Shown: in pieces, positions 2,689 through 17,816 of the stretch
Layout of the letters: every line of letters starts with the position of its first letter
Numbering within the stretch: the first letter of the stretch is position 1
Source: a virus
Lineage: Duplodnaviria; Heunggongvirae; Uroviricota; Caudoviricetes
Reading direction: 5' to 3' (one strand)
DNA length: 39,715 bases
Virus record (IMG/VR): IMGVR_UViG_2541047728_000019
The notes under the pieces: model-generated
What the model saw: the letters and a program-made list of their open reading frames with translations, nothing else
What the model was told of the DNA's origin: nothing
The model's database searches: none
Program-made: the position numbers and the translations under genes

Positions 2689-3079
2689 CGTCTTTTCTCC
2701 CCGGAATTAACTCGCGTGGATTATCGGAACGGTGATAGAGCCATATACCAATACGCACAGCGACAATTGCTGACACGAATGCGCCTGCAGAGAAAACAAT
2801 CCCTTTTTCAAAAGAGTCCTGCGTGATGGTAGGGATCAGGCTGGCTATGCCGATAAGAATTGATGCTGCTGGTTTGTAAAAGAGAAGGCCGCAAAGAAAG
2901 CTGAGCATCGACAGGAGCACCCGGCGACGGATGGGGTACTCTACTGCAGAGGTAACAAAAATTACCGCCCCAGCCAAAGCCCCTAAAGCAACCTCCGGAG
3001 GGACACCTGCAATAACCGCAGCAAGAGAACCAAAACTAAGCAACTGATTTAATTGCTCACTTGTTACTTGAGCAGACAT
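2675..3079 (-). CDS. Holin-like multi-TM protein
   Basis: 134 aa, 4-5 predicted TM helices, AGGAGA SD; first gene of lysis cassette. Confidence 0.6.
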   Translation of the reverse strand: MSAQVTSEQLNQLLSFGSLAAVIAGVPPEVALGALAGAVIFVTSAVEYPIRRRVLLSMLSFLCGLLFYKPAASILIGIASLIPTITQDSFEKGIVFSAGAFVSAIVAVRIGIWLYHRSDNPRELIPGRKDDGNA

Positions 3080-3138
3080 ACTTTCTCCTGTTTACTATCT
3101 ATAAGCCAGTCAATTATTGATGACTAAACCCGCATAGT

Positions 3139-3150
3139 AAACCATATATG
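3139..3150 (-). promoter_or_regulatory. Copy of recurrent motif (minus strand CATATATGGTTT) about 60 bp upstream of holin start
   Basis: Resembles YATATGTGGTT found upstream of tailspike, portal-proximal gene and nin-region gene; no palindrome partner here. Confidence 0.25.
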
Positions 3151-3360
3151 AATCATTATTGTTCCGTATCATATATCTCAATAAAAGTACTAATGATTTT
3201 ACAGAACGAGCCAGCAGAGTGGGGGCAGTTGTACAGGAACCATAGACTTAATTTTGTATTTAATAATGCTATGGTGTAATAAACCTGAACATGTATTTAA
3301 AATACGTACTGATTCATGATAGAATTCAAAGATAACTTTTCACAAACTCCGTTTTTGATA

Positions 3361-3385
3361 CCCGCAAAATATTGCGGGCTTTTTT
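3361..3385. terminator. Hairpin plus T-run between tailspike stop and lysis cassette
   Basis: cccgcaa/ttgcggg stem then 8 T on plus strand; for the minus-strand transcript the U-tract is poor, so function is uncertain. Confidence 0.4.
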
Positions 3386-6300
3386 TTAACGTTCTTCCAG
3401 AGACTGAATCCGCTCTTTTATCTTATCCATTTCTCTGCGCTGCCATGCTGCCTCGATATAGAATAAGAGATCAGGTCTGACCCCCCATCTAGATCCTGCT
3501 GGCGTTATTTCAACGCGCTCAATGATGTCTTCCATTACCATCACTGGATTATCATCCTCATCAACAATGATGCTCCCGTCATTATCAGTCAGCGGCATTT
3601 CCCTTTGGCCAGTAATGACGTCATCATATACTGCGGGATAATCGTCATAGCAAAGAAAGGCATAGCGGCATGTTGTGCTTTCTTCTTCCATGAGTCCGTG
3701 AGAAATAAGAACATCACGAAGTTGCTGCGCGATTACACCATGATGTATCCTCGCCCCTTCTTCCCCCTTTATAGCGACAGCGTTCAGCCATTTATAAGCG
3801 ATATACCTGACGTCACCCCAGGCATCCAGCAATGCTTCGTCAGGAGAGACCGGCTCTGTCTTTAATGTTCCGTCACTGGTAACCACAGGATTGGAGCCAA
3901 GATAAACTGTCGAGAACCTGTTTCCCGGACCACCAAGAGCATTTACATTATCAAGATAAGGTTTAACATCTCCGTTCTCAAAAAGATGTTCGAGTGCGTT
4001 ATATACCGCGCGACGTGGAGTACTGCTTCTGGAACCATGCAACGTTATCATTGCACCATCTGCTGAAGACGTTGTTTCACCGCCGCTAACGATTAATCTC
4101 TGAGCGGTAACATCATCAGACGGTACTTTCTTCGCAATAATGGCGTAATTACCCTCAAGTTTGACTTCCGCGCGAACTTGTCCTGATGTACCTGCATGGA
4201 CAGTCAGTGACTGGACGGCAACATCATCTGTGAAATCAACGGGTACAGGAACCGTCCTCACGCCTGACGTCGACATAAAAGTAGGAAGCGTTCTGTTAGG
4301 AGTGGCTCCGTAGACAAAATCCCTTGAAACAAATTCTTCCTGTTTAATTTTCACCCTGAAACAATACAAATCAGCCGGGTGACCATCGTGAACATAAGGA
4401 TATTTTCTGTTGTTATCCCCTATGCTCCATGGGTTTAGAAAGTCTTCCCCACCGAAAATGTAGTACAGCCAGTTGTCTTTGATACAAACTGAACCAACAC
4501 CAACCGCAGAGTTAACTATTCCGCCCTGATAAATCTGATCAGTAACATTAACCCACTCTACATTATCCAGACTCCACTCATTGACGTTAACTCTGGTCAT
4601 AAATGTTCTTGGATAATTTCCTGCATAACGGTTATCAGGTTCTCCTCCTTCCCACTCACCAAATGCGCGCTCACTGCCAAAAATAATCAGCTCATCGCCA
4701 ACTTTGGCAAAAGGAAGGTTTGAGTGATGAACATTATTTGGGAAGCGAAGAGAATTCCATGATGTACCTAAATCAGAGCTTCTGTGCAATGAACTACCGG
4801 GTTGAGTACTTAATGTCCCCCTGGTCGTCAGATACAGAATGCCATCATAATATTTTACACATGGCTCAGATGCATTCGCCTCATATTCTACAGGTATGCG
4901 TCTGCGAACAAAGCTACCAGGAGAACCGAAAGCATCAGAGAAATAGAGTATCCCAAGCTCGCGTGGACCAATATCACCATTATGGTAGCCAACAGCAAAA
5001 CTGTTATCGCTAATCGTCGCAAAACTGTGAATCTCAGTAACAGGAGTGCTTCCGTCAACAAAAGAAGGAATAGTTCCAAGACTGGTTTTTCTCCATGGTG
5101 ACGAGTGAAATGATGTGCCAAAACTCCAGTATCTACCCTCGTTATTCTGATCCACATCCTGGGTATTTTTCGTCGTAACTGTAAAGGTATTTTTATCAAT
5201 AACAGTAGTCACCGTCATATTCCCGGTAACACCTGTAACACCAGAGTTTGAGAAGTTGACAAAATCACCAGCAAATAATCCGTGATCAGTAATGCGAATA
5301 TAAGCGACTTGCTGATTTGCTGCTTTCGTTATACCACCATAAACGCGAAGGCTGCGACTCATTGGGCGATCCCACAACTCTGCAACCTGCAGTTTATTTC
5401 CGCTCACGGTCCGCGTCTCAATTACAGCAAAAAGGCGATTTCTGACAACCCCCATACTCATGCAGTGATAGTTAACTGTGGGATAGTTTTCATGTAAATC
5501 TGTAAGCCATTCCGGCGTTGTCCAGGTCTTCCCGTCATCTCCTGAGCGAACCCATGCAACATGGAGGTTATTTACACCATGGCGGTCTCCAGCCATAAAA
5601 GGCGCATAGATGACATTGTCATATACAAACGTTTTATCCTGCGTCCAGGCGTTGTACCACGGTGTATCTGTAATTTTAAATAACTCTCCCTGGATAAAAT
5701 CTTCAGAAGCATAAAAAAGAGGTTGGCCCGGTATTCTCTCAAATAAAAAACGAGCATTTTTAAATCGACTGACATCCGGAAGAGTTGATACTTTAAAAGT
5801 AAGCCCTAATCCGTCAATTTTATAACCTGGAGATGAGGCTTCAAGGCACGCGCTTATTGCAGTGGAATCGTCATTTATACCATCACCAACAGCTCCAAAA
5901 TCTTTGGGGCTAATAGCATCACGCATTTTATCCTGGAACGTTCGGTACACAGCCCCAGAACCATACTGAATAAACCAACCAAAACCACCAACAACCCCGG
6001 AGATTGCAGCATCGACATAATTACGCATTGAGCGATTATTTACAGCGTCCTGCTCAAATGATGGATCTGCAAGGTTAGAAATTTTGTTTTGCTTTGCATC
6101 GTAATATTTTGCAAGCAAAGATGGTTTCATCAATGCACGTCTGAACCACCCAAAACATTGCTGGATCAGCATCGTCAGATAGTCAAAGGCATCTTCATGC
6201 ACCTCGGGGAAAAATTTTCCCTGATTACGAAGATCAGTCTCCTGCACCACATCAAGCACACGATCTATCGTAATTCGCCATCCAGCAGCAAGCGGCGACG

Positions 6301-6505
6301 GAAGAACAACAGAACCGCCACTATAAGTGCCCGCCCCAGTTACCGTATAACCGGTATCCAGTACTAGTTCTGTTACGTTACCGTTAAGGTCAGACACCTG
6401 AACAACCAGGTCGGATTTTTTGAAAATACGGAAGGTATACGGAAATGATGTCGTAACGCCGTTACCAGTGTATTCGTTGTGGTCAACTTCGGTTGAGACC
6501 GTCAT
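3386..6505 (-). CDS. Tailspike: N-terminal particle-binding domain, central beta-helix-type depolymerase region, C-terminal intramolecular chaperone (peptidase S74-like) domain
   Basis: 1039 aa; DFGAVGDGINDDSTAI motif typical of pectate-lyase-like beta-helix enzymes; C-terminal DEALLDAWG...YKWLNAVAIKGEEGARIHHGVIAQQ matches self-cleaving chaperone domains; GGAGA SD. Confidence 0.85.
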   Translation of the reverse strand: MTVSTEVDHNEYTGNGVTTSFPYTFRIFKKSDLVVQVSDLNGNVTELVLDTGYTVTGAGTYSGGSVVLPSPLAAGWRITIDRVLDVVQETDLRNQGKFFPEVHEDAFDYLTMLIQQCFGWFRRALMKPSLLAKYYDAKQNKISNLADPSFEQDAVNNRSMRNYVDAAISGVVGGFGWFIQYGSGAVYRTFQDKMRDAISPKDFGAVGDGINDDSTAISACLEASSPGYKIDGLGLTFKVSTLPDVSRFKNARFLFERIPGQPLFYASEDFIQGELFKITDTPWYNAWTQDKTFVYDNVIYAPFMAGDRHGVNNLHVAWVRSGDDGKTWTTPEWLTDLHENYPTVNYHCMSMGVVRNRLFAVIETRTVSGNKLQVAELWDRPMSRSLRVYGGITKAANQQVAYIRITDHGLFAGDFVNFSNSGVTGVTGNMTVTTVIDKNTFTVTTKNTQDVDQNNEGRYWSFGTSFHSSPWRKTSLGTIPSFVDGSTPVTEIHSFATISDNSFAVGYHNGDIGPRELGILYFSDAFGSPGSFVRRRIPVEYEANASEPCVKYYDGILYLTTRGTLSTQPGSSLHRSSDLGTSWNSLRFPNNVHHSNLPFAKVGDELIIFGSERAFGEWEGGEPDNRYAGNYPRTFMTRVNVNEWSLDNVEWVNVTDQIYQGGIVNSAVGVGSVCIKDNWLYYIFGGEDFLNPWSIGDNNRKYPYVHDGHPADLYCFRVKIKQEEFVSRDFVYGATPNRTLPTFMSTSGVRTVPVPVDFTDDVAVQSLTVHAGTSGQVRAEVKLEGNYAIIAKKVPSDDVTAQRLIVSGGETTSSADGAMITLHGSRSSTPRRAVYNALEHLFENGDVKPYLDNVNALGGPGNRFSTVYLGSNPVVTSDGTLKTEPVSPDEALLDAWGDVRYIAYKWLNAVAIKGEEGARIHHGVIAQQLRDVLISHGLMEEESTTCRYAFLCYDDYPAVYDDVITGQREMPLTDNDGSIIVDEDDNPVMVMEDIIERVEITPAGSRWGVRPDLLFYIEAAWQRREMDKIKERIQSLEER

Positions 6506-9012: not shown

Positions 9013-9552
9013 GTGTTAAGTGAAGAAATGCAATTTGCCATGGCTGTGGCTCAAATCGTAAGTGCAGTCGCGGTTTCGCTTGGCTTGTTCATAGCTATCG
9101 CTACTATTATTTATAATGTAAATACAGCGAGAAAAGTACACACTTCAGTATTCCTTGGTGAAAGCAGGTTTGATGTAGATTATAAGAAAGGCCTATCTAC
9201 TATGCGCCGCATTCACGAGTCGAACAAATCATTCCGCTCTTATATGTATCCAAGCAATGGGCAGGCTGATCTTACGGATGAAGAAAAGATAGAGAAGAGA
9301 GAAATAATTTACTGTCTAGGTTTCTACGAACGCATGGCTGTGAGCGTGAAGCGGAAAACTTATGATGAGACCATGATTAAGGAAGTATTTTACAGCTCCG
9401 TTGTAAATAACTATCAGATTGCGCTACCTCTTATACAAGCTATTAGAGAAAAAGAAAACATAAACACATATTTTAAAGAATATGAATGGTTGGCCACACG
9501 ATGGAAGGATTGTCCATTGAAGGATAAATCCCCGTGGTACAAGTTTTGGTAA
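9013..9552 (+). CDS. Membrane-anchored protein, unknown function (candidate superinfection-exclusion or abortive-infection factor)
   Basis: GTG start with GGAG SD; N-terminal TM helix then about 150-aa soluble domain; AT-rich relative to neighbours. Confidence 0.6.
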   Translation: MLSEEMQFAMAVAQIVSAVAVSLGLFIAIATIIYNVNTARKVHTSVFLGESRFDVDYKKGLSTMRRIHESNKSFRSYMYPSNGQADLTDEEKIEKREIIYCLGFYERMAVSVKRKTYDETMIKEVFYSSVVNNYQIALPLIQAIREKENINTYFKEYEWLATRWKDCPLKDKSPWYKFW

Positions 9553-9574: not shown

Positions 9575-9602
9575 TGTCTGCGGATTCCCGCCCGGGTGGC
9601 GG

Positions 9603-9629
9603 TGGCATTCGTTAAAAACAAGGCCGCGA
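9603..9629 (-). terminator. Rho-independent terminator after the AntA-type antirepressor
   Basis: aggccgc-gaaa-gcggcct stem preceded by A-run on plus strand (U-run on minus transcript). Confidence 0.55.
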
Positions 9630-9688
9630 AAGCGGCCTGTGACATGTCACGCTAGTTTCGTTTTGCACGTCCCTGTGCCGCCGTTCTG

Positions 9689-9922
9689 TCAGAAGAACCC
9701 TGCCTTGTCGTTGATGTATTCCGCGTGCGTCTGGATATCACGCAGGCATTTGCTCACACCAACGATGTAGCAGAACATGGTGGTCAGCTCCGCCGCCGCG
9801 CCCGATACATCGTGCCCGTCTTCCTGTAACTGGTTCAGCAGATTCATCAGCAGTGAGTTCTCCGTCAGGCCGAGAACACCCGACGGCGAATGAATCAGAC
9901 TGCGGTAGCCTGGCTTCAATGG
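9689..9922 (-). repeat. Right arm of the 234-bp inverted repeat
   Basis: Reverse complement aligns to 8564-8797 with about 95 percent identity. Confidence 0.8.
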
Positions 9923-10627
9923 ATAACCATAACATTTTGTCTGTGTTTTAATTGCCTCACGAAGCGCATCTAACATCTTGACTGCCACTTCATCATTCTC
10001 TGATGCAGATCCAGCAGGGAGATACTCCCCTTCAAGCGGAACCCGAGCAACAAGAGACAACGCTTCGGCAAATTGATCTTCACCAATTTCTTTGTACGAA
10101 CAGCCAAAATGAGATTTCAGTGACGACCACATGGTGATCATCGCCTTAGCCTGTTTTTCTTTTGGCAGAGACTGACCGCGACTCATGACGAGTTGTTTAA
10201 TGGCTTCCTGCTGTTCAGTTGTTATTTTACCCGGCAACGCCTTTTTAGCTTTGCGTGGGTTAACCACATGGCCTTTAGTCCAGTACTCGTAGAGCACATC
10301 GTCACACTCTTCCTGATACTGGATTACCTTGTCGCGGATTTCAGGGCGGACTTTGTTAGGGCTGATGCTGTTCAACCAAGCTGCCAATTTTCGTAAAGCC
10401 ATACAAATCATGGCTTGCACCCCACCGGCAGAAGGTATGGTGATTTCCACCATACCCTTCGAGAAGCGTTGAGAAATCTTCTTATGTTGAGATTTCCAGT
10501 CTAGCCCCATTCCCTCAACGATAGGTTTCATTGGGGTATACGGTTCGCCGTTGTGATTGACAACATAAAGCTCTGCGCCGTGGAATGGCACGTTGATAGT
10601 AGATACTGCTGTTGCTATACTCGTCAT
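9689..10627 (-). CDS. ant: Antirepressor, AntA-type N-terminal domain plus shared Ant C-terminal module
   Basis: N-terminal PFHGAELYVVNHNGEPYTPMKPIVEGMGLDW resembles AntA; downstream of Arc-like gene as in P22 immI. Confidence 0.8.
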   Translation of the reverse strand: MTSIATAVSTINVPFHGAELYVVNHNGEPYTPMKPIVEGMGLDWKSQHKKISQRFSKGMVEITIPSAGGVQAMICMALRKLAAWLNSISPNKVRPEIRDKVIQYQEECDDVLYEYWTKGHVVNPRKAKKALPGKITTEQQEAIKQLVMSRGQSLPKEKQAKAMITMWSSLKSHFGCSYKEIGEDQFAEALSLVARVPLEGEYLPAGSASENDEVAVKMLDALREAIKTQTKCYGYPLKPGYRSLIHSPSGVLGLTENSLLMNLLNQLQEDGHDVSGAAAELTTMFCYIVGVSKCLRDIQTHAEYINDKAGFF

Positions 10628-10676
10628 GTCGTTAATTCCTATACGTAGTTTTACGATACTGAAGCCCTGACGGTCT

Positions 10677-10690
10677 GGCCACCGTGGGGC
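10677..10690. promoter_or_regulatory. GC-rich dyad GGCCACCGTGGGGC between arc-like and ant
   Basis: Near-palindrome; second copy at 10882-10896. Confidence 0.35.
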
Positions 10691-10699
10691 TTCGCTGTT

Positions 10700-10867
10700 T
10701 TATGCCACGCTATTCTTCTCACCAGTGAGTCCATACACTTTCCTCAGCTGATAGATAATCTCTGTATTGAACTTTCGGCATTCTTTTTCGCCATTTCTTT
10801 CAATAGCTAACTTCACATCGTCCGGAAAACGAACTCGTCGTTGACACATCTCTTTTGCTTTTTGCAT
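10700..10867 (-). CDS. arc: Arc-like ribbon-helix-helix repressor
   Basis: 55 aa; RVRFPDDVKLAIERNGEKECRKFNTEIIYQLRKVYG parallels P22 Arc; AGGAGA SD before ATG 10867. Confidence 0.7.
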   Translation of the reverse strand: MQKAKEMCQRRVRFPDDVKLAIERNGEKECRKFNTEIIYQLRKVYGLTGEKNSVA

Positions 10868-10881
10868 TTCATATCTCCTTA

Positions 10882-10896
10882 GCCCCACCGTGGGGC
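10882..10896. promoter_or_regulatory. GC-rich dyad GCCCCACCGTGGGGC in the arc/mnt divergent control region
   Basis: Near-perfect palindrome overlapping arc 5' region; further dyads (CACCGTG...CACGGTG) nearby. Confidence 0.4.
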
Positions 10897-10987
10897 AAAA
10901 TAATTGTCACACCGTGCGTCATTGATGTCAAGCACACGGTGAGGCATACTTCAATCATTGCAAGTAACTCAATATTTGGTGAAGAAC

Positions 10988-11419
10988 ATGAGCAGAGAAG
11001 ATCCACAACTAAGGATCAGACTTCCCGTCGAAGTAAAAGAAAAAATAGAAATTTCTGCAAAAGCCAATAAGCGATCAATGAACGCTGAAATAGTACAACG
11101 TCTTGACACCAGCTTTCTGAAAGATATTCATGAAGATGACGTAATTTCTGCTTATGAAGCAAAAATCATTGCAAACAATGCACGACATGAAATATCAAAT
11201 ATTATTTTCAAAAGAACCTTTAATGAAATTAATAAGAAAATAACACTTGGACATACAAGTTTTTATATAAACCTTAATGACCTTGAACTGGAATCACTTG
11301 CAGATAATGATTACCAGATCATCTTTGAAAAAACATTTAATAAGCTCAATGAACTAGGTTACATCATCTGTGAAAACTCATGGGATGCAGATGGTTTTGG
11401 AATTGAAATACCTGAATAG
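10988..11419 (+). CDS. mnt: Mnt-like ribbon-helix-helix repressor with about 95-aa C-terminal extension
   Basis: MSREDPQLRIRLPVEVKEKIEISAKANKRSMNAEIVQRL closely parallels the P22 Mnt N-terminus; divergent from arc-ant; very AT-rich. Confidence 0.7.
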   Translation: MSREDPQLRIRLPVEVKEKIEISAKANKRSMNAEIVQRLDTSFLKDIHEDDVISAYEAKIIANNARHEISNIIFKRTFNEINKKITLGHTSFYINLNDLELESLADNDYQIIFEKTFNKLNELGYIICENSWDADGFGIEIPE

Positions 11420-11482
11420 GAAGAACAAAAGGCGTGTACATATTACACGTCTTTAATACAATTGAAAAACGCCACATTACTG

Positions 11483-12073
11483 ATGTATGTTACAACAAGG
11501 AGCGATATTTTGAAAACCATATCTATATTAAAGGTTGCATTAGGCGTCGCTATTATTTTGACTCTCTCAATATTGTTTTATTTTTACCACAAACAAACTG
11601 CTATTGCTCTTGATAGTCACGCGGCAAACTCATTTTTCTCAGAGTACATAGTGCCGCTATCAGGAAGCGGTATAACAAATAAATATACTGACTATGACAT
11701 CAAATATGGAATTGATGATGGGGAGACTATTGTATTACATGTAATCATTAAAAACCTAATGACAGTAAATAAAAATACAGACTTCAACGATAAAAATACA
11801 ATACATCACAACAACAGCAAAACATTAATTTCTTATAGTAGCAACATCTATACGGATAAATACCTAAAATACATATCAGAAGATACAATAAAAGAAACCC
11901 GCGAAAAGTTAAAAAACATATATTGTGCATCCGGCAGTTTTCACAAATTATCGCCGCAAGAGCGTTTATTCTACGAAGCAAGAAAACAACGTAAGTCAAT
12001 AATATTACATTATTATGCTGATTCAGGGGAGACACTCATATTTAATATTGGGGTTTCCCCTGAATCATGCTAA
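11483..12073 (+). CDS. Membrane-anchored protein, unknown function, at the sieA-equivalent position
   Basis: N-terminal TM helix, Asn/Lys/Tyr-rich soluble domain, very AT-rich; start uncertain (ATG 11483 or TTG 11510 preceded by AAGGAG). Confidence 0.55.
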   Translation: MYVTTRSDILKTISILKVALGVAIILTLSILFYFYHKQTAIALDSHAANSFFSEYIVPLSGSGITNKYTDYDIKYGIDDGETIVLHVIIKNLMTVNKNTDFNDKNTIHHNNSKTLISYSSNIYTDKYLKYISEDTIKETREKLKNIYCASGSFHKLSPQERLFYEARKQRKSIILHYYADSGETLIFNIGVSPESC

Positions 12074-12084
12074 AGGTGTTTAAC

Positions 12085-15000
12085 TCACCGCATCACCGGA
12101 TCCACCTGGTTTATTAGTGGCGCAATCCAGAACAGGTTATTGCCGGGTATCAGGGTTCGGACATTATGCACAATACGATCACCGGCATCACCATTCAACA
12201 CTCCTGCGGTCACATCAATGATGCTATCCGCAAGACCAAATGACGGTCCGAATAGAGATCCTACGAATCCACGACTGGCATACCTAGACTGTGTGCCAGT
12301 GCCAAATAAAGCCCCCAGCCCAACAGCACCACCAGTAGCCTTTTCAGCCATATTGTTATATTCCATCAATGGCCCAAGAATACCGGATCTATCTATACCC
12401 TCAAGCACCAGCTTCTCTGGTGACCAGTCAACATTTTTCCCTTTCGATGCTTCTTTAAGCGCATAGACCAGTGAGCCAAGAGCAATCTGAAATGCAGTGC
12501 CATAATAAAATTGCGCAGTTCCTTCCTGTAACCCACCAAGTAGCGCACGGTTGTATGAAGCCGTTGTGAATGATTTAAACTGAAATATCGTTCGCCCCAT
12601 TGGAGTACTCGCCCATAAAGGTGTGTCACCAATACCGGGGGTGATGATAGTGTTATTAACGTCTTTCAGAACCGCTGACTGGAATACTCCGGCAACGTAC
12701 TGATCGTCCCATTTATCAAAGTTACCAATGTGCCATCCATCAATTACCTCACCATGTTTCTCGAACTCACTGCGAATACGCGCAGCCATATTGTCGTTGA
12801 TACCGAGTTTTGCCATGCGACGTGCAGAAAACGCACCAGACAAAATACCGTCTGACGTGAGCATTCCGTTCATGGATTTGTTTATGTCATTAAATCGATC
12901 CATGAGTGTCAGCTTGCCGAAGGCATCAGTAATTCGCTCCATTCCTGCTTCGACTGCTGTTGTCCTGGAAGAACTGTCAACAAGATCACCAATTGCACGA
13001 GAACGTGAATGTAGTACAGTTTCCAATCCAATCCCCATCTTCAACATCTCTTCTTTGCTGGCCTTAAATGCCGGTGATTGGGATATCTGAGAAGCATAGC
13101 CTTTCATGGAGTTACGGAAACCATTAACCATAACCCCTCTGGCCAGATCTGGAATAGCTGATACTGTCATTCCACCGAGTTTGGTCGTGAAGTTCACATC
13201 CCGCAGAAAAGCGCCAGCACGAACAAAAAACGAAGACGGGTCATCAGGCATACCATATGTACCAACAAGACGATCGCGTAATGCTGTTATGTCTCTGAGA
13301 TCATTTGCTCTTGATTTTGAAAGTCTGGACTGTTCTTTCCGTAATTCCTTTTCGTACTTTCGCATTAATGAATCGAGTTTACCCTGAGGAACAACTTCAC
13401 CATTGCTCTCATAACGTGCTTTCAGATTTGCCACACTTTCGTCATATTTCGCCTTTATTTTTTCAGGCACTTCCCGTAACAGACTGTCATATTCGTCCTC
13501 AATTAATTGCAGACGCTCTGTCATAGTTCGTTTGCCAAATGTTCTCGTCAACTCAATTTCTGCTGCCGCTTCACGGATATGACGTTGTAGAACGTAATTC
13601 ACATCACTTTCGAGATAATCCCTGATAAGACTATCAGGCACATTTAATGTTCTTTCTTTCGTACTACCTGCGGCTTTTACAGAAAATACGCTGACAAAAT
13701 CCTGTGGAACCTTAGCACCAGTAATTTTATTAATTACGATATCCGCTGCAATTTCAGCATCCTCAGGATCCAGTGTTTTATTGCCTCTCGACCACCAGTC
13801 AACCAAAATACGTCGAAATTTATCGCGTTCACTGATTATTTTTCCAACTTTATATATACGTGGGAAATAGCTTGCCTGGCCTAATGCTTTCAGTTCTTCA
13901 TCTGGCGGCAATAAACCAAGCTTTTGCATTTCAACCTTCACCCGATTTAATACAGTTCGCATCGCCTGCGCCGTTTCCTGAACAACAGGATTAGCATGCA
14001 CATCACCGCTTCGCATAGCATTCCCAACCTGCTGACGAAATGAATCAAAACTCATGTCACCACCATCAGCTTTATACTTTGCGTATGCCTGTTTATTTCC
14101 GACAACAACAGCAGCTTCTTCACGCTGCCATCCACGTGTACGGGTTTCTACAGCTACCGGTGTTTCAATCCCCCTTTCATTTCCTTTAAGGGTGAAATTA
14201 TTTTCGGCTAACTCCAGCGTTGTTTTTCGCACTGTCTTGGACGGAGACTCCATTAACCTTGTCAAAGGAGTAAGATAGCTCCCTGCTTTCCATGCAGCCT
14301 TTCCAACCACCCCACCGGAAACAGGGGTTAAATCATCCAGAGTCGCTGTATCAATTTTCATAGCACCAACACTACCACCATCAGAAAGCGAAGCGGCAGC
14401 CCTGTCAGTCGCTGATGTAATGCTCATATTATCAAGAGCATCAGCAACCTCACGCGTGGCTGCAGCCCGGACGGATGGCGAAAGCGCAACACCAGCACTG
14501 GCAAACACGCCGCTCATCATCGCACCCGCTGCAATGTGAGCGGCACTTTCACCCCATGAGCGTGTTATTTGCTGATTATTCAGCACAACCTCGCTTAATG
14601 CTGTACCGGCTGCACCAATCGCAATCTGTGAGCCAATACGCGCCAGTGCCCCTCCTTGAGCACCGGGGATAAACATTGACGCAACAGTAACCGGATCCAT
14701 TCCCGCAGCAATACTGGCAAGGGTTCCAACTACGCCAGCATCAGACAATAAACGTCTGTCTTCATTTTCATCATCTATCTGCTGCTTAATCCACGCCGTT
14801 TCCTCTGGCGATCGGGAATCTGCAAATTTCGCCCCCCAGTATTCATAACCGTGCAACTCATTTTTATCAGCATATGGGTTATAACCTTCGACCGGTTCAA
14901 ACTGTCTGGCTGGTCGGAAAAAACCAGCCAGAATATTGTTCTGTCGCATTGCAGCCCCCCATACGGAAGGCTCCGGTGGCAATGGCTCAGGATTAGCCCC

Positions 15001-15099
15001 TTCCGGAAGGGCAACATCAAACCCAGTTTGTTCCGGCAAAACATTACCTGACGGGATCAGTCCGTTATTAAGATCTTCAGCTTGTGCATAAACTGGCAT
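12085..15099 (-). CDS. Large internal virion / DNA-ejection protein
   Basis: 1004 aa, last of the internal-protein block; start overlaps upstream stop. Confidence 0.75.
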   Translation of the reverse strand: MPVYAQAEDLNNGLIPSGNVLPEQTGFDVALPEGANPEPLPPEPSVWGAAMRQNNILAGFFRPARQFEPVEGYNPYADKNELHGYEYWGAKFADSRSPEETAWIKQQIDDENEDRRLLSDAGVVGTLASIAAGMDPVTVASMFIPGAQGGALARIGSQIAIGAAGTALSEVVLNNQQITRSWGESAAHIAAGAMMSGVFASAGVALSPSVRAAATREVADALDNMSITSATDRAAASLSDGGSVGAMKIDTATLDDLTPVSGGVVGKAAWKAGSYLTPLTRLMESPSKTVRKTTLELAENNFTLKGNERGIETPVAVETRTRGWQREEAAVVVGNKQAYAKYKADGGDMSFDSFRQQVGNAMRSGDVHANPVVQETAQAMRTVLNRVKVEMQKLGLLPPDEELKALGQASYFPRIYKVGKIISERDKFRRILVDWWSRGNKTLDPEDAEIAADIVINKITGAKVPQDFVSVFSVKAAGSTKERTLNVPDSLIRDYLESDVNYVLQRHIREAAAEIELTRTFGKRTMTERLQLIEDEYDSLLREVPEKIKAKYDESVANLKARYESNGEVVPQGKLDSLMRKYEKELRKEQSRLSKSRANDLRDITALRDRLVGTYGMPDDPSSFFVRAGAFLRDVNFTTKLGGMTVSAIPDLARGVMVNGFRNSMKGYASQISQSPAFKASKEEMLKMGIGLETVLHSRSRAIGDLVDSSSRTTAVEAGMERITDAFGKLTLMDRFNDINKSMNGMLTSDGILSGAFSARRMAKLGINDNMAARIRSEFEKHGEVIDGWHIGNFDKWDDQYVAGVFQSAVLKDVNNTIITPGIGDTPLWASTPMGRTIFQFKSFTTASYNRALLGGLQEGTAQFYYGTAFQIALGSLVYALKEASKGKNVDWSPEKLVLEGIDRSGILGPLMEYNNMAEKATGGAVGLGALFGTGTQSRYASRGFVGSLFGPSFGLADSIIDVTAGVLNGDAGDRIVHNVRTLIPGNNLFWIAPLINQVDPVMR

Positions 15100-17816
15100 T
15101 ATTTAGATCCCCACGAAAAGTAATCTTTAAATTTGTCCATACGTTCGTTATGCAGGCGCTGATACTGCTCATCCAGAGCGCGATGCTTGTCTTTGAAGTT
15201 TCGTATAGCCTGTCCACGCATAATTTCTTCCTGCTCGTACTGCTCCCGTTCCTGCTGCATTTTCTTATAAGGTTCCCAATCTTCTAGTGATGGTTCCCAA
15301 CGCATAGGACGCCCATGTTTGTTATAAAACGGCTGGACCCGATCGATGCCATTTTCATCCTTAGTTCTTACCATAATGGCGTAATCACCATTACGAGGTG
15401 TTAACACGTCAGGGGTTATGAATAATTCTCCATTAATACGACTCTCAGGGGTTTTTGTCTCAACTACAGGAGCATTACCTGACGTGATCCCAAGCAACGT
15501 CGGACTGGTTGTTATAATCTCTTTGCGCTCACCGTACATCAGCCGTTCTTTTTCAGCTTTCCACTGCGCCGCCTGCCAGCCTGACGGCCCATATTGATAA
15601 AGCGCCTCCGGTGCATATTTCATAAACTGCGCTTCTCCGTTAACCTCGCTGATACTCCAGGTGCGGGCTATCTGCTGGTTGGTCATTTGCTTCGCTACGT
15701 CAGCGTTACCACCAGCAACGCGGTAGTTAATGTCATACAGCGTCTGATAGTCATTACGGAATCTAGCTGCTTCCGGCGTCTGGTCATCCGCAGACGGATC
15801 CCAACGGAACCACTGCGCCATATTGCTGACAGCAGAATTCATCGCCTTGCTGCGATTATTTTTGTACTCTTTTGAACTCTGCGTTGATGCCAATTGAGCT
15901 TTAAGAGCATCGGTCTGGTTGTACGTCAGGTTCTGCGCCTGCTCGATAGCCGCATCAGCAGACATGCCAGAATCTGTTAGTTGCTTAACAGTCAGATAAA
16001 AACCCTGCATATCCTTCGGCATATTTCCAATAGATGCATTGTCTGTTTCATATAACCGACTAAACAAATTCGCTGCATTTTTAACCACTTCCTGATTGCT
16101 GGATCTGGATACTGCTGAAAGCTGCGTGATGACCTGCGAAGGCATGATGCCAGTCTGAGCCACAAGCCGAACAACCCCATCATGAGTGGAGGCATCATTA
16201 ATACGAAAGTTCTGCGCCATTTCTGTGTAATCAGCAGCTTTCTGCATTGATTTGTTGCTTGGGTCTAATTTTTCACCTATTGTCAGCGCCTCATTGAATC
16301 TGCGTGAATCACGTTGCGCCTGAATTGCTTCATTTGATCGCTGAAGCAATGCAGACAATTTTCCGTAAGCATCGAGTTTTAACGCATAGTGAGGATCGTT
16401 AACCTCAGGCTTCACTTTCTGCATTTCTTCTTGCTGCTGAGAAGGAGGTAAATACTGAATTGCCTGGAATATTCTCGCGTTATCAATCGCTATATCCAGT
16501 TGATTGATTATTTTATCTGCATTTTTTCCATACCCCCTGATGATAGTCTCCTGAGCCGGTATATAATCTGGAACCTCACCGTTATATAGCTGGGCCATGG
16601 TGTTATTAATAGCTGGCTCAAGCTGTTCTAATATTAACTTCCTTTGCTTTTCTATCTGACTATTAGCAAGGTTATCTATTTGATAAATAGTCAGCGGATC
16701 CATTCCAGTTTTATTTTTTCTATATCGGGAAAGCCACCCTTGTGTTTCTGATGGAAGATTTCGGATAAATTCTTCTTCTGATATTTCACCTTTACGTGGA
16801 TCACCGACTTTGGCGATCAGTTTATCCACGTTACCCATCCCCCAGTTATATGCTGCTCCGGTCAATATTTCGGAGCCGTACTTACCATACAGTTGATTTA
16901 CATAGTCACTGGCGAGCATTTCATGCTGTTGTTCGTCCGTAGGGTTGTATTTAACGCCACGCTTGGCCGCCAGTTCTTTCCCTGTGCCCGGCATTAACTG
17001 GTATTTCCCCTGGGCTCTCTCTCCAGAAGATGTTATCGGTCCTTCAAGAAGACTACCATCAGGATTAAAATGTCGATCACCTGATTCAACAAGGCGTATG
17101 GCACGCATGTCCATGCCTCCAGAATCATTTTTCTGAAACAGACCATTTAGCCATCCTTCTGGATTGGCAGCGGCATAATTCTTCGCCCGCATTTCTGTGG
17201 CACGGCGATCATCACTTTCTATTTCTTCCAGAATGCGTTCTTGTGACCATCCCCTGGCAGCTCCATATCTAGCAATGGCTACCATTCTGGAATTTCTGGC
17301 TAAAGTGGCAGTTTGCGGGTCATTCCAGGCATCCGCTTCATTTTGTATCCATAATTTTCTCGTTGCCTGATATTGCTCATCTTCATAGGCATTTGTCTGC
17401 CCTATCTCATGTCTGAGAACTCCAGTACTGAACTGAATTTTCTGTGTTCTGGCTTGTTGCAAAAACATATTTCTTGCTGCTTCATCAGTCAATGAAGCAG
17501 CTATTTCTTCCACATCCTGATCAAATCCAGATATGTACTCTTGCCCCTTACCAATCGCATTTTTGCCTTGTTGTGCATAAAAACCGGTTTGAGGGTTATA
17601 AAGACGTTCATTGCTGCGCTGATTAAGCTGAAGGATGGCATCCTGAGACAATGCAACATTCGCTTTCTGCCTGGCTTCACCATATGCCACCGCATACTGA
17701 TCTGCGACATTCGCCAGCACCTGACCTGCTTGAGGAACATCGAAGATCTGAAAACCACCGGTTTGCACACCACGACTTTGCACCTGGCGTCCGGATGTAG
17801 TAGGAACAACAGGCAT
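15099..17816 (-). CDS. Internal virion protein with soluble lytic transglycosylase domain
   Basis: 905 aa; SLT-like segment with ES..GDRHF...GKYQLMPGT and AAYNWGMGNV. Confidence 0.85.
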   Translation of the reverse strand: MPVVPTTSGRQVQSRGVQTGGFQIFDVPQAGQVLANVADQYAVAYGEARQKANVALSQDAILQLNQRSNERLYNPQTGFYAQQGKNAIGKGQEYISGFDQDVEEIAASLTDEAARNMFLQQARTQKIQFSTGVLRHEIGQTNAYEDEQYQATRKLWIQNEADAWNDPQTATLARNSRMVAIARYGAARGWSQERILEEIESDDRRATEMRAKNYAAANPEGWLNGLFQKNDSGGMDMRAIRLVESGDRHFNPDGSLLEGPITSSGERAQGKYQLMPGTGKELAAKRGVKYNPTDEQQHEMLASDYVNQLYGKYGSEILTGAAYNWGMGNVDKLIAKVGDPRKGEISEEEFIRNLPSETQGWLSRYRKNKTGMDPLTIYQIDNLANSQIEKQRKLILEQLEPAINNTMAQLYNGEVPDYIPAQETIIRGYGKNADKIINQLDIAIDNARIFQAIQYLPPSQQQEEMQKVKPEVNDPHYALKLDAYGKLSALLQRSNEAIQAQRDSRRFNEALTIGEKLDPSNKSMQKAADYTEMAQNFRINDASTHDGVVRLVAQTGIMPSQVITQLSAVSRSSNQEVVKNAANLFSRLYETDNASIGNMPKDMQGFYLTVKQLTDSGMSADAAIEQAQNLTYNQTDALKAQLASTQSSKEYKNNRSKAMNSAVSNMAQWFRWDPSADDQTPEAARFRNDYQTLYDINYRVAGGNADVAKQMTNQQIARTWSISEVNGEAQFMKYAPEALYQYGPSGWQAAQWKAEKERLMYGERKEIITTSPTLLGITSGNAPVVETKTPESRINGELFITPDVLTPRNGDYAIMVRTKDENGIDRVQPFYNKHGRPMRWEPSLEDWEPYKKMQQEREQYEQEEIMRGQAIRNFKDKHRALDEQYQRLHNERMDKFKDYFSWGSK

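Follow-up and report, generated by a model that had tools for sequence, protein, structure and literature searches.

A putative P22-type immI switch and a candidate exported accessory gene beside the ejection-protein genes of an Escherichia coli prophage that is not P22-like

In phage P22, mnt is divergent from the arc-ant operon, with the antisense RNA sar, in the switch known as immI, and sieA follows downstream of mnt, its 3' end facing that of the last ejection-protein gene. SieA prevents the delivery of DNA, and phages escape it by mutations in the ejection proteins gp16 and gp20; the protein has three predicted membrane-spanning helices, and its family carries the motif FxRYPxEAxxFNK (PMC10883804). 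In T4, incoming DNA is stopped by Sp, which modulates the phage lysozyme that opens the cell wall (PMC11436027). How does a locus of similar layout in a phage that does not resemble P22 compare with these systems? Here we describe positions 10988-12073 of IMG/VR record IMGVR_UViG_2541047728_000019, a Caudoviricetes sequence of 39,715 nucleotides that we call the window. The region holds two intact genes on the plus strand: gene A (10988-11419), which encodes a 'long Mnt' protein of 143 amino acids (aa), and gene B (11510-12073), which encodes a 187-aa candidate superinfection-exclusion protein of PHROG 8033 from a TTG start. Our best overall explanation, held with about even confidence, is that gene A specifies the Mnt repressor of an immI switch and that gene B is a separate accessory gene whose product is exported. 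The region would then consist of two independent units that have in common only their strand and their low GC content.

The case for gene A begins at its N-terminus. Residues 2-46 match the Pfam Arc family (PF03869), by which Arc/Mnt ribbon-helix-helix (RHH) repressors are recognized, at 54.5 bits (E 1.1e-14), above the curated cut-off of 20.4. BLASTP aligns the protein with P22 Mnt (83 aa) across 88 aa at 32% identity (E 3e-14) and pairs residues 1-86 with Mnt 1-83, so that the C-terminal oligomerization helix of Mnt is included. A first-pass annotation of this DNA had noted the N-terminal parallel and had described a protein about 60 aa longer than Mnt with a C-terminus rich in Asn, Ile and Lys; both descriptions are accurate, the excess being 60 aa and the three residues making up 34% of positions 46-143. 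Structure prediction, which the same annotation had proposed as a check, was run. The AlphaFold model of gene A (predicted local distance difference test, pLDDT, 81) places an RHH domain at ~1-45, a long helix at 55-86, which would be the counterpart of the Mnt oligomerization helix, and beyond it a small alpha/beta domain at ~90-140, which probably adds oligomerization or partner binding. What did not stand is the idea that the C-terminal extension is novel. The full-length protein matches PHROG 1388 from end to end, and its homologues form 262 clusters across the Enterobacterales at 58-69% identity, named 'Arc family DNA-binding protein'; because gene A is a member of this large annotated family, its C-terminal part is not new as sequence. 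It is a known kind of protein, from an annotated but unstudied long-Mnt family. Among E. coli variants its ratio of nonsynonymous to synonymous polymorphism (pN/pS) is 0-0.11, and gene A is under strong purifying selection.

Two relatives of gene A deserve separate mention. In Escherichia phage TL-2011b (L001), one additional G at ~6414, equivalent to window ~11012 (AAGGG versus AAGG, at codon 9 of gene A), shifts the reading frame, so that the gene is annotated there as a 113-aa hypothetical protein without the RHH domain. The extra base reflects either a broken gene in that isolate or a sequencing error. Outside the Enterobacterales, ORF7 of the Pseudomonas filamentous prophage PfAC03 shares 40% identity with gene A over residues 1-125, and its gene is transcribed away from that of the excisionase; Arc/Mnt-domain open reading frames (ORFs) of 145-225 aa, without tested function, have been noted in Pf prophages (PMC7549136). 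These prophages differ from the window element in that they are inoviruses with no arc-ant partner shown, and the match misses the last ~20 residues of gene A.

Is gene A part of a complete switch? Divergent from it lies arc (10700-10867, minus strand), encoding a small RHH repressor of 55 aa with PHROG Arc-like matches and the RefSeq name 'Arc-like repressor'. On the same strand, ant (9689-10627) encodes a 312-aa antirepressor that matches Pfam P22_AR_N (E 5.9e-45) and is annotated 'anti-repressor Ant' in TL-2011b. Between the two, on the plus strand, Rfam RF00262 detects a sar-type antisense RNA at 10629-10696 over the full length of the model, at 44.8 bits against a gathering score of 43 (E 4e-7); this P22-type regulatory RNA is here found in a phage that is not P22-like. 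The divergent control region of 120 bp (10868-10987) carries promoter-like sites and CACCGTG/CACGGTG at 10886, 10910 and 10935, with a fourth CACCGTG-type copy at 10680 in the sar region; there are seven copies in the window, four of them inside 262 bp. These candidate Arc and Mnt operators flank overlapping promoter-like hexamers, TTGACA-17-GACAAT on the minus strand and, read by eye, TTGATG-17-CATACT on the plus strand. The 12-mer CCACCGTGGGGC is present twice, at 10679-10690 in the 3' half of the sar match and at 10885-10896, where it forms a near-perfect palindrome directly upstream of the arc ribosome-binding site. Lambdoid prophages of Yersinia pestis and Enterobacter show a comparable layout: gene A homologues are divergent from a 55-aa arc at the same position and a Bro-N/Ant gene, and the CACCGTG block of the control region is kept.

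Gene content and order thus identify gene A, arc, sar and ant as a predicted P22-type immI switch, situated, as in P22, with the ejection-protein genes on one side and the tailspike end of the genome on the other. The likeness to P22 takes in the N-terminal RHH domain, the similarity through the C-terminal helix of Mnt, the divergent arc-ant genes and sar. The difference is that the window phage has T7-type internal core proteins and is not P22-like. Mnt of P22 is a tetramer that represses the ant promoter in lysogens from an operator overlapping it. As the Mnt equivalent, gene A would, we infer, bind the CACCGTG-type operators of the control region in a lysogen and hold arc and ant off; with ant kept off, the antirepressor would not inactivate the main prophage repressor. 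The role of gene A as a repressor of ant appears well supported by context.

The protein encoded by gene B is of a different nature. Translation is taken to start at TTG 11510, seven bases past AAGGAG, and to end at 12073, in agreement with the 187-position PHROG 8033 model and with the RefSeq annotation in sister genomes. Relatives are scarce: a word-indexed search among 5.8 billion gave five clusters, only one of them distant (48% identity); a HMMER scan of 1.84 billion protein representatives found 17; and tblastn against 50,697 phage records gave a match in TL-2011b only. Close-family patterns of gene B found no relatives in the GTDB species-representative genomes, and IMG/VR searched with P0141 yielded nothing. 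In the family alignment, at 26-48% identity, a positively charged N-terminus is followed by a hydrophobic segment, the only one in gene B (residues ~4-26), and by the motifs LSG..A..FF..Y.VP, YC and, at the C-terminus, GVSP.SC. All members have Cys139, and 90% or more have Cys187; these two residues probably form a disulfide. Some members possess a textbook cleavable signal peptide, for example MKKLIPLLLIFPFIASA followed after the cleavage site by STD. The first-pass annotation had called gene B membrane-anchored. Its single N-terminal hydrophobic segment is confirmed, but the supposed anchor is perhaps a cleavable signal peptide, since relatives carry clear ones, and the window protein may be either anchored or cleaved after AIA33. 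The charged N-terminus, the hydrophobic segment and the signal peptides of relatives together suggest that the protein faces the periplasm. A lipoprotein was considered and rejected by eye: relatives have a conserved Cys in this segment, but the residue before it is F, L, V or I and not the small one of a lipobox, and gene B of the window has Ala there. Neither gene B nor 12 family members gave a credible match in Pfam, NCBIfam or PADLOC, the best library matches being ThsB-like (PADLOC, E 0.0054, 15 bits) for gene B, Imm42 (E 0.0044) in one member and DUF3836 (E 0.46). With no credible family there and SieA unrelated, the first impression of a protein without recognizable similarity was correct.

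Might gene B simply be a decaying or non-functional ORF retained by chance in AT-rich filler? Its very few homologues, a pN/pS relaxed relative to gene A and the frameshifted or truncated copies in some assemblies (P0002-P0004) would suit such an origin. Nevertheless, the 187-codon ORF is intact in five of five E. coli variants compared, homologues at 26-48% identity retain the motifs, the Cys pair and the export signal, and pN/pS stays below 0.5 in longer comparisons (0.3-0.44, from small counts). Gene B is constrained, but much less than gene A, and we regard a dead ORF as extremely improbable.

Do the two genes belong together? They had been described at first as a two-gene cassette and, in one suggestion, as an RHH-regulated toxin-like pair, that is, a toxin-antitoxin-like or abortive-infection pair with an RHH antitoxin or regulator and a membrane-protein toxin. 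RHH proteins are often antitoxins, and gene A has a weak FitA-like RHH match in Pfam, below the cut-off; the genes are same-strand neighbours; and in complete E. coli genomes they invariably co-occur (together in 36 of 5426). To set against this, we collected 40 loci with a gene B homologue from E. coli, Serratia, Providencia, Proteus, metagenomes and IMG/VR. The gene A family stands upstream of gene B only in 18 near-identical E. coli loci; the other 22 lack it, including those of Serratia, Providencia, Proteus and metagenomic phages. In L003, the sole other relative with an RHH gene, a different RHH gene of 120 aa lies upstream of the gene B homologue, and the two genes overlap, as a pair might; in the remaining loci the upstream neighbours are Bro-N, ORF6N or Rha genes, genes for other exported proteins, or terminase genes, so that most gene B lineages have no RHH neighbour. 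The gene A family is equally independent, being solitary in all seven Yersinia and Enterobacter places shown, with no downstream same-strand gene at the long-Mnt loci of Y. pestis and Enterobacter, and in the window it belongs to an immI switch complete with sar, arc and ant. The pairing conserved across genomes that marks type II toxin-antitoxin systems is therefore not seen, nor is a downstream cytoplasmic toxin of a family recognized by Pfam, NCBIfam or PADLOC. Neither gene satisfies a PADLOC defence model; gene A has no match there at all, and the ThsB-like match of gene B reaches a mere 15 bits.

The DNA between the genes also separates them. The spacer is 90 bp long and contains a hairpin with an 11-bp stem just 3' of the gene A stop (11428-11454, plus strand; -13.1 kcal/mol, z -4.3 versus shuffles), which coincides with a terminator-like match on the minus strand and is possibly a weak two-way terminator. 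A promoter-like consensus match, TGTACA-16-TACAAT, lies at 11435-11462, upstream of gene B. Because gene B is exported and carries a Cys pair, unlike type II toxins, because a 90-bp hairpin spacer parts it from gene A and because no toxin or defence model matches, the cassette view and the toxin-like pair were both abandoned, and we give the latter hardly any credence.

What gene B does keep is its place. Its neighbours are, on one side, the mnt-like gene and, on the other, the convergent last large ejection-protein gene (12085-15099, minus strand), whose 1004-aa product belongs to PHROG 342, 'internal virion protein'. This is the position of sieA in P22, as first proposed and as a comparison of the P22 annotation with the window ORF map bears out. 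Genes upstream of the 1004-aa gene encode SLT and T7_gp14 domains, and the virion module is of T7 internal-core type, comprising a T7_gp14-family protein, a 905-aa SLT transglycosylase-domain protein and the 1004-aa protein. By the last of these, the nearest isolated phages include podoviruses of Klebsiella and E. coli together with many Vibrio phages, and they are not P22-like; judged from these sequences, the host phage of genes A and B is not P22-like. Gene B is on the strand opposite to the late operon. In all 40 loci collected, only 0-34 bp separate its homologue from the stop codon of a convergent gene homologous to that for the 1004-aa protein; those ejection proteins range from 45 to 100% identity over their last 400 aa.

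Where gene B is missing, the slot may be filled by something else. About eight further complete E. coli genomes have the same ejection-protein gene without genes A and B. In the two that were examined, E. coli MS 196-1 and CE0007a (L018 and L019), the ejection-protein gene is 96.6% identical, homology breaks 1-2 bases past its stop codon, and the place of gene B is taken by the gene of an unrelated 175-aa protein that has a membrane helix at its N-terminus (WP_000451652, at 3448-3975 of L018/L019), for which no family match was found. Neighbouring slots in Providencia prophages likewise hold an exported protein, and more distant relatives, such as EC.W1-9 and ST512-KPC3phi13.3, have no counterpart of gene B. 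Gene B represents an uncharacterized small family in a known kind of slot. Its export, its opposite strand downstream of mnt, its fixed slot and its replacement by a membrane protein in sibling phages are the reasons for viewing it as an envelope-acting prophage accessory gene.

Several further features mark the junction. A strong hairpin occupies the last 17 codons of gene B (12017-12068), at the meeting point of convergent transcription; the 101-nucleotide region that contains it folds at -41.8 kcal/mol (z -6.2). Two conserved motifs, DSGE and SPES, are encoded in the arms of the hairpin. The gene B homologues of L003 and L006 have comparable hairpins, that of L003 with one apparent compensatory synonymous change, and the structure may be a terminator or an RNA stabilizer where convergent transcripts meet. 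Close by, at the 3' end of the 1004-aa gene, 45 bp (12091-12135) are 100% identical to L020 3501-3545, a non-coding stretch in many ST131 prophages with otherwise unrelated flanks; it looks like a recombination scar or a module boundary.

How far does the comparison with SieA carry? Gene B shares the slot downstream of mnt, convergent with the last ejection-protein gene, and both are envelope-located prophage accessory proteins. As a SieA homologue, however, gene B was rejected (BLASTP E 0.25, hhalign probability 0.4%): it has neither sequence homology to the family, the FxRYPxEAxxFNK motif included, nor the polytopic inner-membrane architecture of three to four helices. Instead, a single signal or anchor segment at its N-terminus precedes a periplasmic domain that bears the Cys pair. 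T4 Sp and Imm offer a second point of reference, being small envelope proteins that halt incoming phage DNA at the injection step. T4 is lytic, and sp and imm are early genes, not prophage genes. The SLT wall-cutting domain in the ejection module of the window phage means that a target comparable to that of Sp exists, but the tblastn search of 50,697 phage records showed no sequence similarity to gene B, and the link is purely conceptual.

We tentatively favour a role for gene B in post-adsorption superinfection exclusion, by a protein akin in function to P22 SieA or T4 Sp/Imm and unrelated to them, while granting that this function is itself less than probable. The gene would be a separate accessory gene, probably expressed from the prophage, with transcription either reading through from the mnt promoter or starting at a promoter of its own, and we infer such expression in lysogens. 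The product would leave by the Sec system with its disulfide-stabilized domain toward the periplasm, and there or at the inner membrane it would hinder the ejection proteins of incoming related podoviruses. Position and export make exclusion plausible by analogy. The proposal of a novel exclusion or defence module thus survives in part: exclusion by gene B is still the best guess, but the two genes are not one module. A bolder and somewhat more doubtful version holds that gene B founds a new, sequence-orphan class of periplasmic exclusion proteins specific to temperate podoviruses with T7-type internal core proteins. Its exported, disulfide-stabilized domain would act in the periplasm on the ejection machinery of the incoming phage and neutralize either its large internal virion proteins or the SLT domain with which they cut the wall, which would explain why gene B adheres to the end of the ejection operon in every lineage found.

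A number of findings weigh against the picture we have drawn. Homology searches linked gene B neither to SieA nor to any other known exclusion protein, and its structure model is weak (pLDDT 59.7), with marginal fold matches only. The promoter calls are bare consensus matches in AT-rich DNA, fewer than in shuffled sequence. A different E. coli phage also has a mnt-arc-ant locus, and there no mnt expression was detectable in the lysogen (PMC12922286); expression in lysogens is therefore not to be assumed. Finally, gene B divergence and ejection-protein divergence across the loci correlate at a Spearman coefficient of 0.14, a value reached by 395 of 2000 Mantel permutations; a tightly co-evolving binder-target pair is therefore not indicated.

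The invariant adjacency to the ejection-protein gene could also mean that gene B serves the phage's own cycle, acting in the periplasm on the ejection proteins or their SLT domain as a partner, a chaperone or an inhibitor; it could, for example, shield an already infected cell or avert premature wall damage. The 905-aa neighbour with its SLT domain, in a module of the T7 gp14/15/16 type, and the conserved hairpin at the convergent junction agree with such a role. Nevertheless, gene B and the late operon are on opposite strands, the gene does not co-diverge with the ejection protein and is not found in the distant relatives EC.W1-9 and ST512-KPC3phi13.3, and it is dispensable, because siblings with a near-identical ejection protein carry an unrelated replacement. 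We consider an own-cycle function quite unlikely.

The base composition of the region bears on another possibility. The first-pass annotation had described it as very AT-rich, with GC far under that of the flanking virion genes, and a sliding-window check, which it had proposed, agrees: 10988-12073 has 32.6% GC, the lowest of any span of that length within the window, where equal-length spans have a mean of 48.0% (standard deviation 3.8). Gene A has 32.4% GC overall and 24% at third codon positions, and gene B 32.4% and 31%; virion genes have 45-54%, and the flanks of the two-gene stretch 46-50%. Separate acquisition, which had been read into these figures, does not follow. Genes of the gene B family are AT-rich in all hosts (33-37% GC versus 40-53% in flanks), so that low GC is a lasting family trait and no evidence of recent acquisition by the window phage. 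Gene B does resemble phage morons of the HK97 gp15 type: its composition is unlike that of its flanks (32% versus 46-50% GC), it lies between conserved genes on the strand opposite to the late operon, and it is replaced in close relatives (L018 and L019). It differs in that its family keeps to a single site in distant phages, as a moron that moves freely would not usually do. The candidates for a promoter and terminator of its own are the consensus match at 11435-11462 and the hairpins.

Such moron-like traits raise the prospect that gene B serves lysogenic conversion: as a periplasmic or secreted protein it would alter the host envelope or host-animal interactions to the advantage of the bacterium and have no role in exclusion. 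The protein is exported and has a conserved disulfide pair, its gene is AT-rich, the neighbouring Providencia slots hold an exported protein too, and the hosts of the closest E. coli loci are pathogenic or commensal strains from human, cattle, pig and poultry sources. Against this stand the 40/40 linkage to an ejection-protein gene in hosts of differing lifestyle, hard to reconcile with a host-directed function, and the lack of homology to any virulence or envelope-modifying family in Pfam, NCBIfam or PADLOC. Conversion is in our judgement unlikely, if less so than a function in the phage's own cycle.

The element that carries these genes is an E. coli prophage close to TL-2011b (NC_019445), which was obtained by induction of an outbreak strain of serotype O103:H25. 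Identity to TL-2011b is 99.6% over window bases 10600-12300 and 98.3% over 9577-16000, hence ~98-99.6% in this region. Judged by titles and abstracts, the 15 papers listed out of 23 mentioning TL-2011b do not evidently concern genes A and B. The tailspike gene (3386-6505, minus strand) encodes an endosialidase with the full set of its Pfam domains (E 4e-233) and an S74 chaperone domain, so that the window prophage is K1-capsule specific, unlike TL-2011b with its O103 host. Directly downstream of that gene, at 3001-3400, is another AT-rich patch of ~35% GC. At 9013-9552 (plus strand) a gene of 39% GC encodes a 179-aa DUF4760 protein whose N-terminal segment is hydrophobic by eye; in TL-2011b this site is occupied by a toxin gene of the YafO family and by a small membrane protein, and the DUF4760 gene is a further swapped accessory gene adjoining the immI region.

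What would these genes mean for the biology of such prophages? Apart from the question of exclusion, the region is an ordinary immI switch with an accessory gene, and interest in it would be higher if a periplasmic exclusion mechanism were shown for gene B and modest otherwise. For annotation, the comparison has value in that gene A is mis-called in the reference phage TL-2011b owing to the frameshift. The long Mnt, with its uncharacterized extra domain, is the usual form of this repressor in prophages of the Enterobacterales. Should gene B prove to exclude phages, an unrelated periplasmic family would join the few known exclusion proteins that block injection, and it would provide a handle on how T7-type ejection proteins cross the periplasm. 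Exclusion of this kind would also be relevant when K1 and Shiga-toxin-producing E. coli with such prophages are to be treated with phages.

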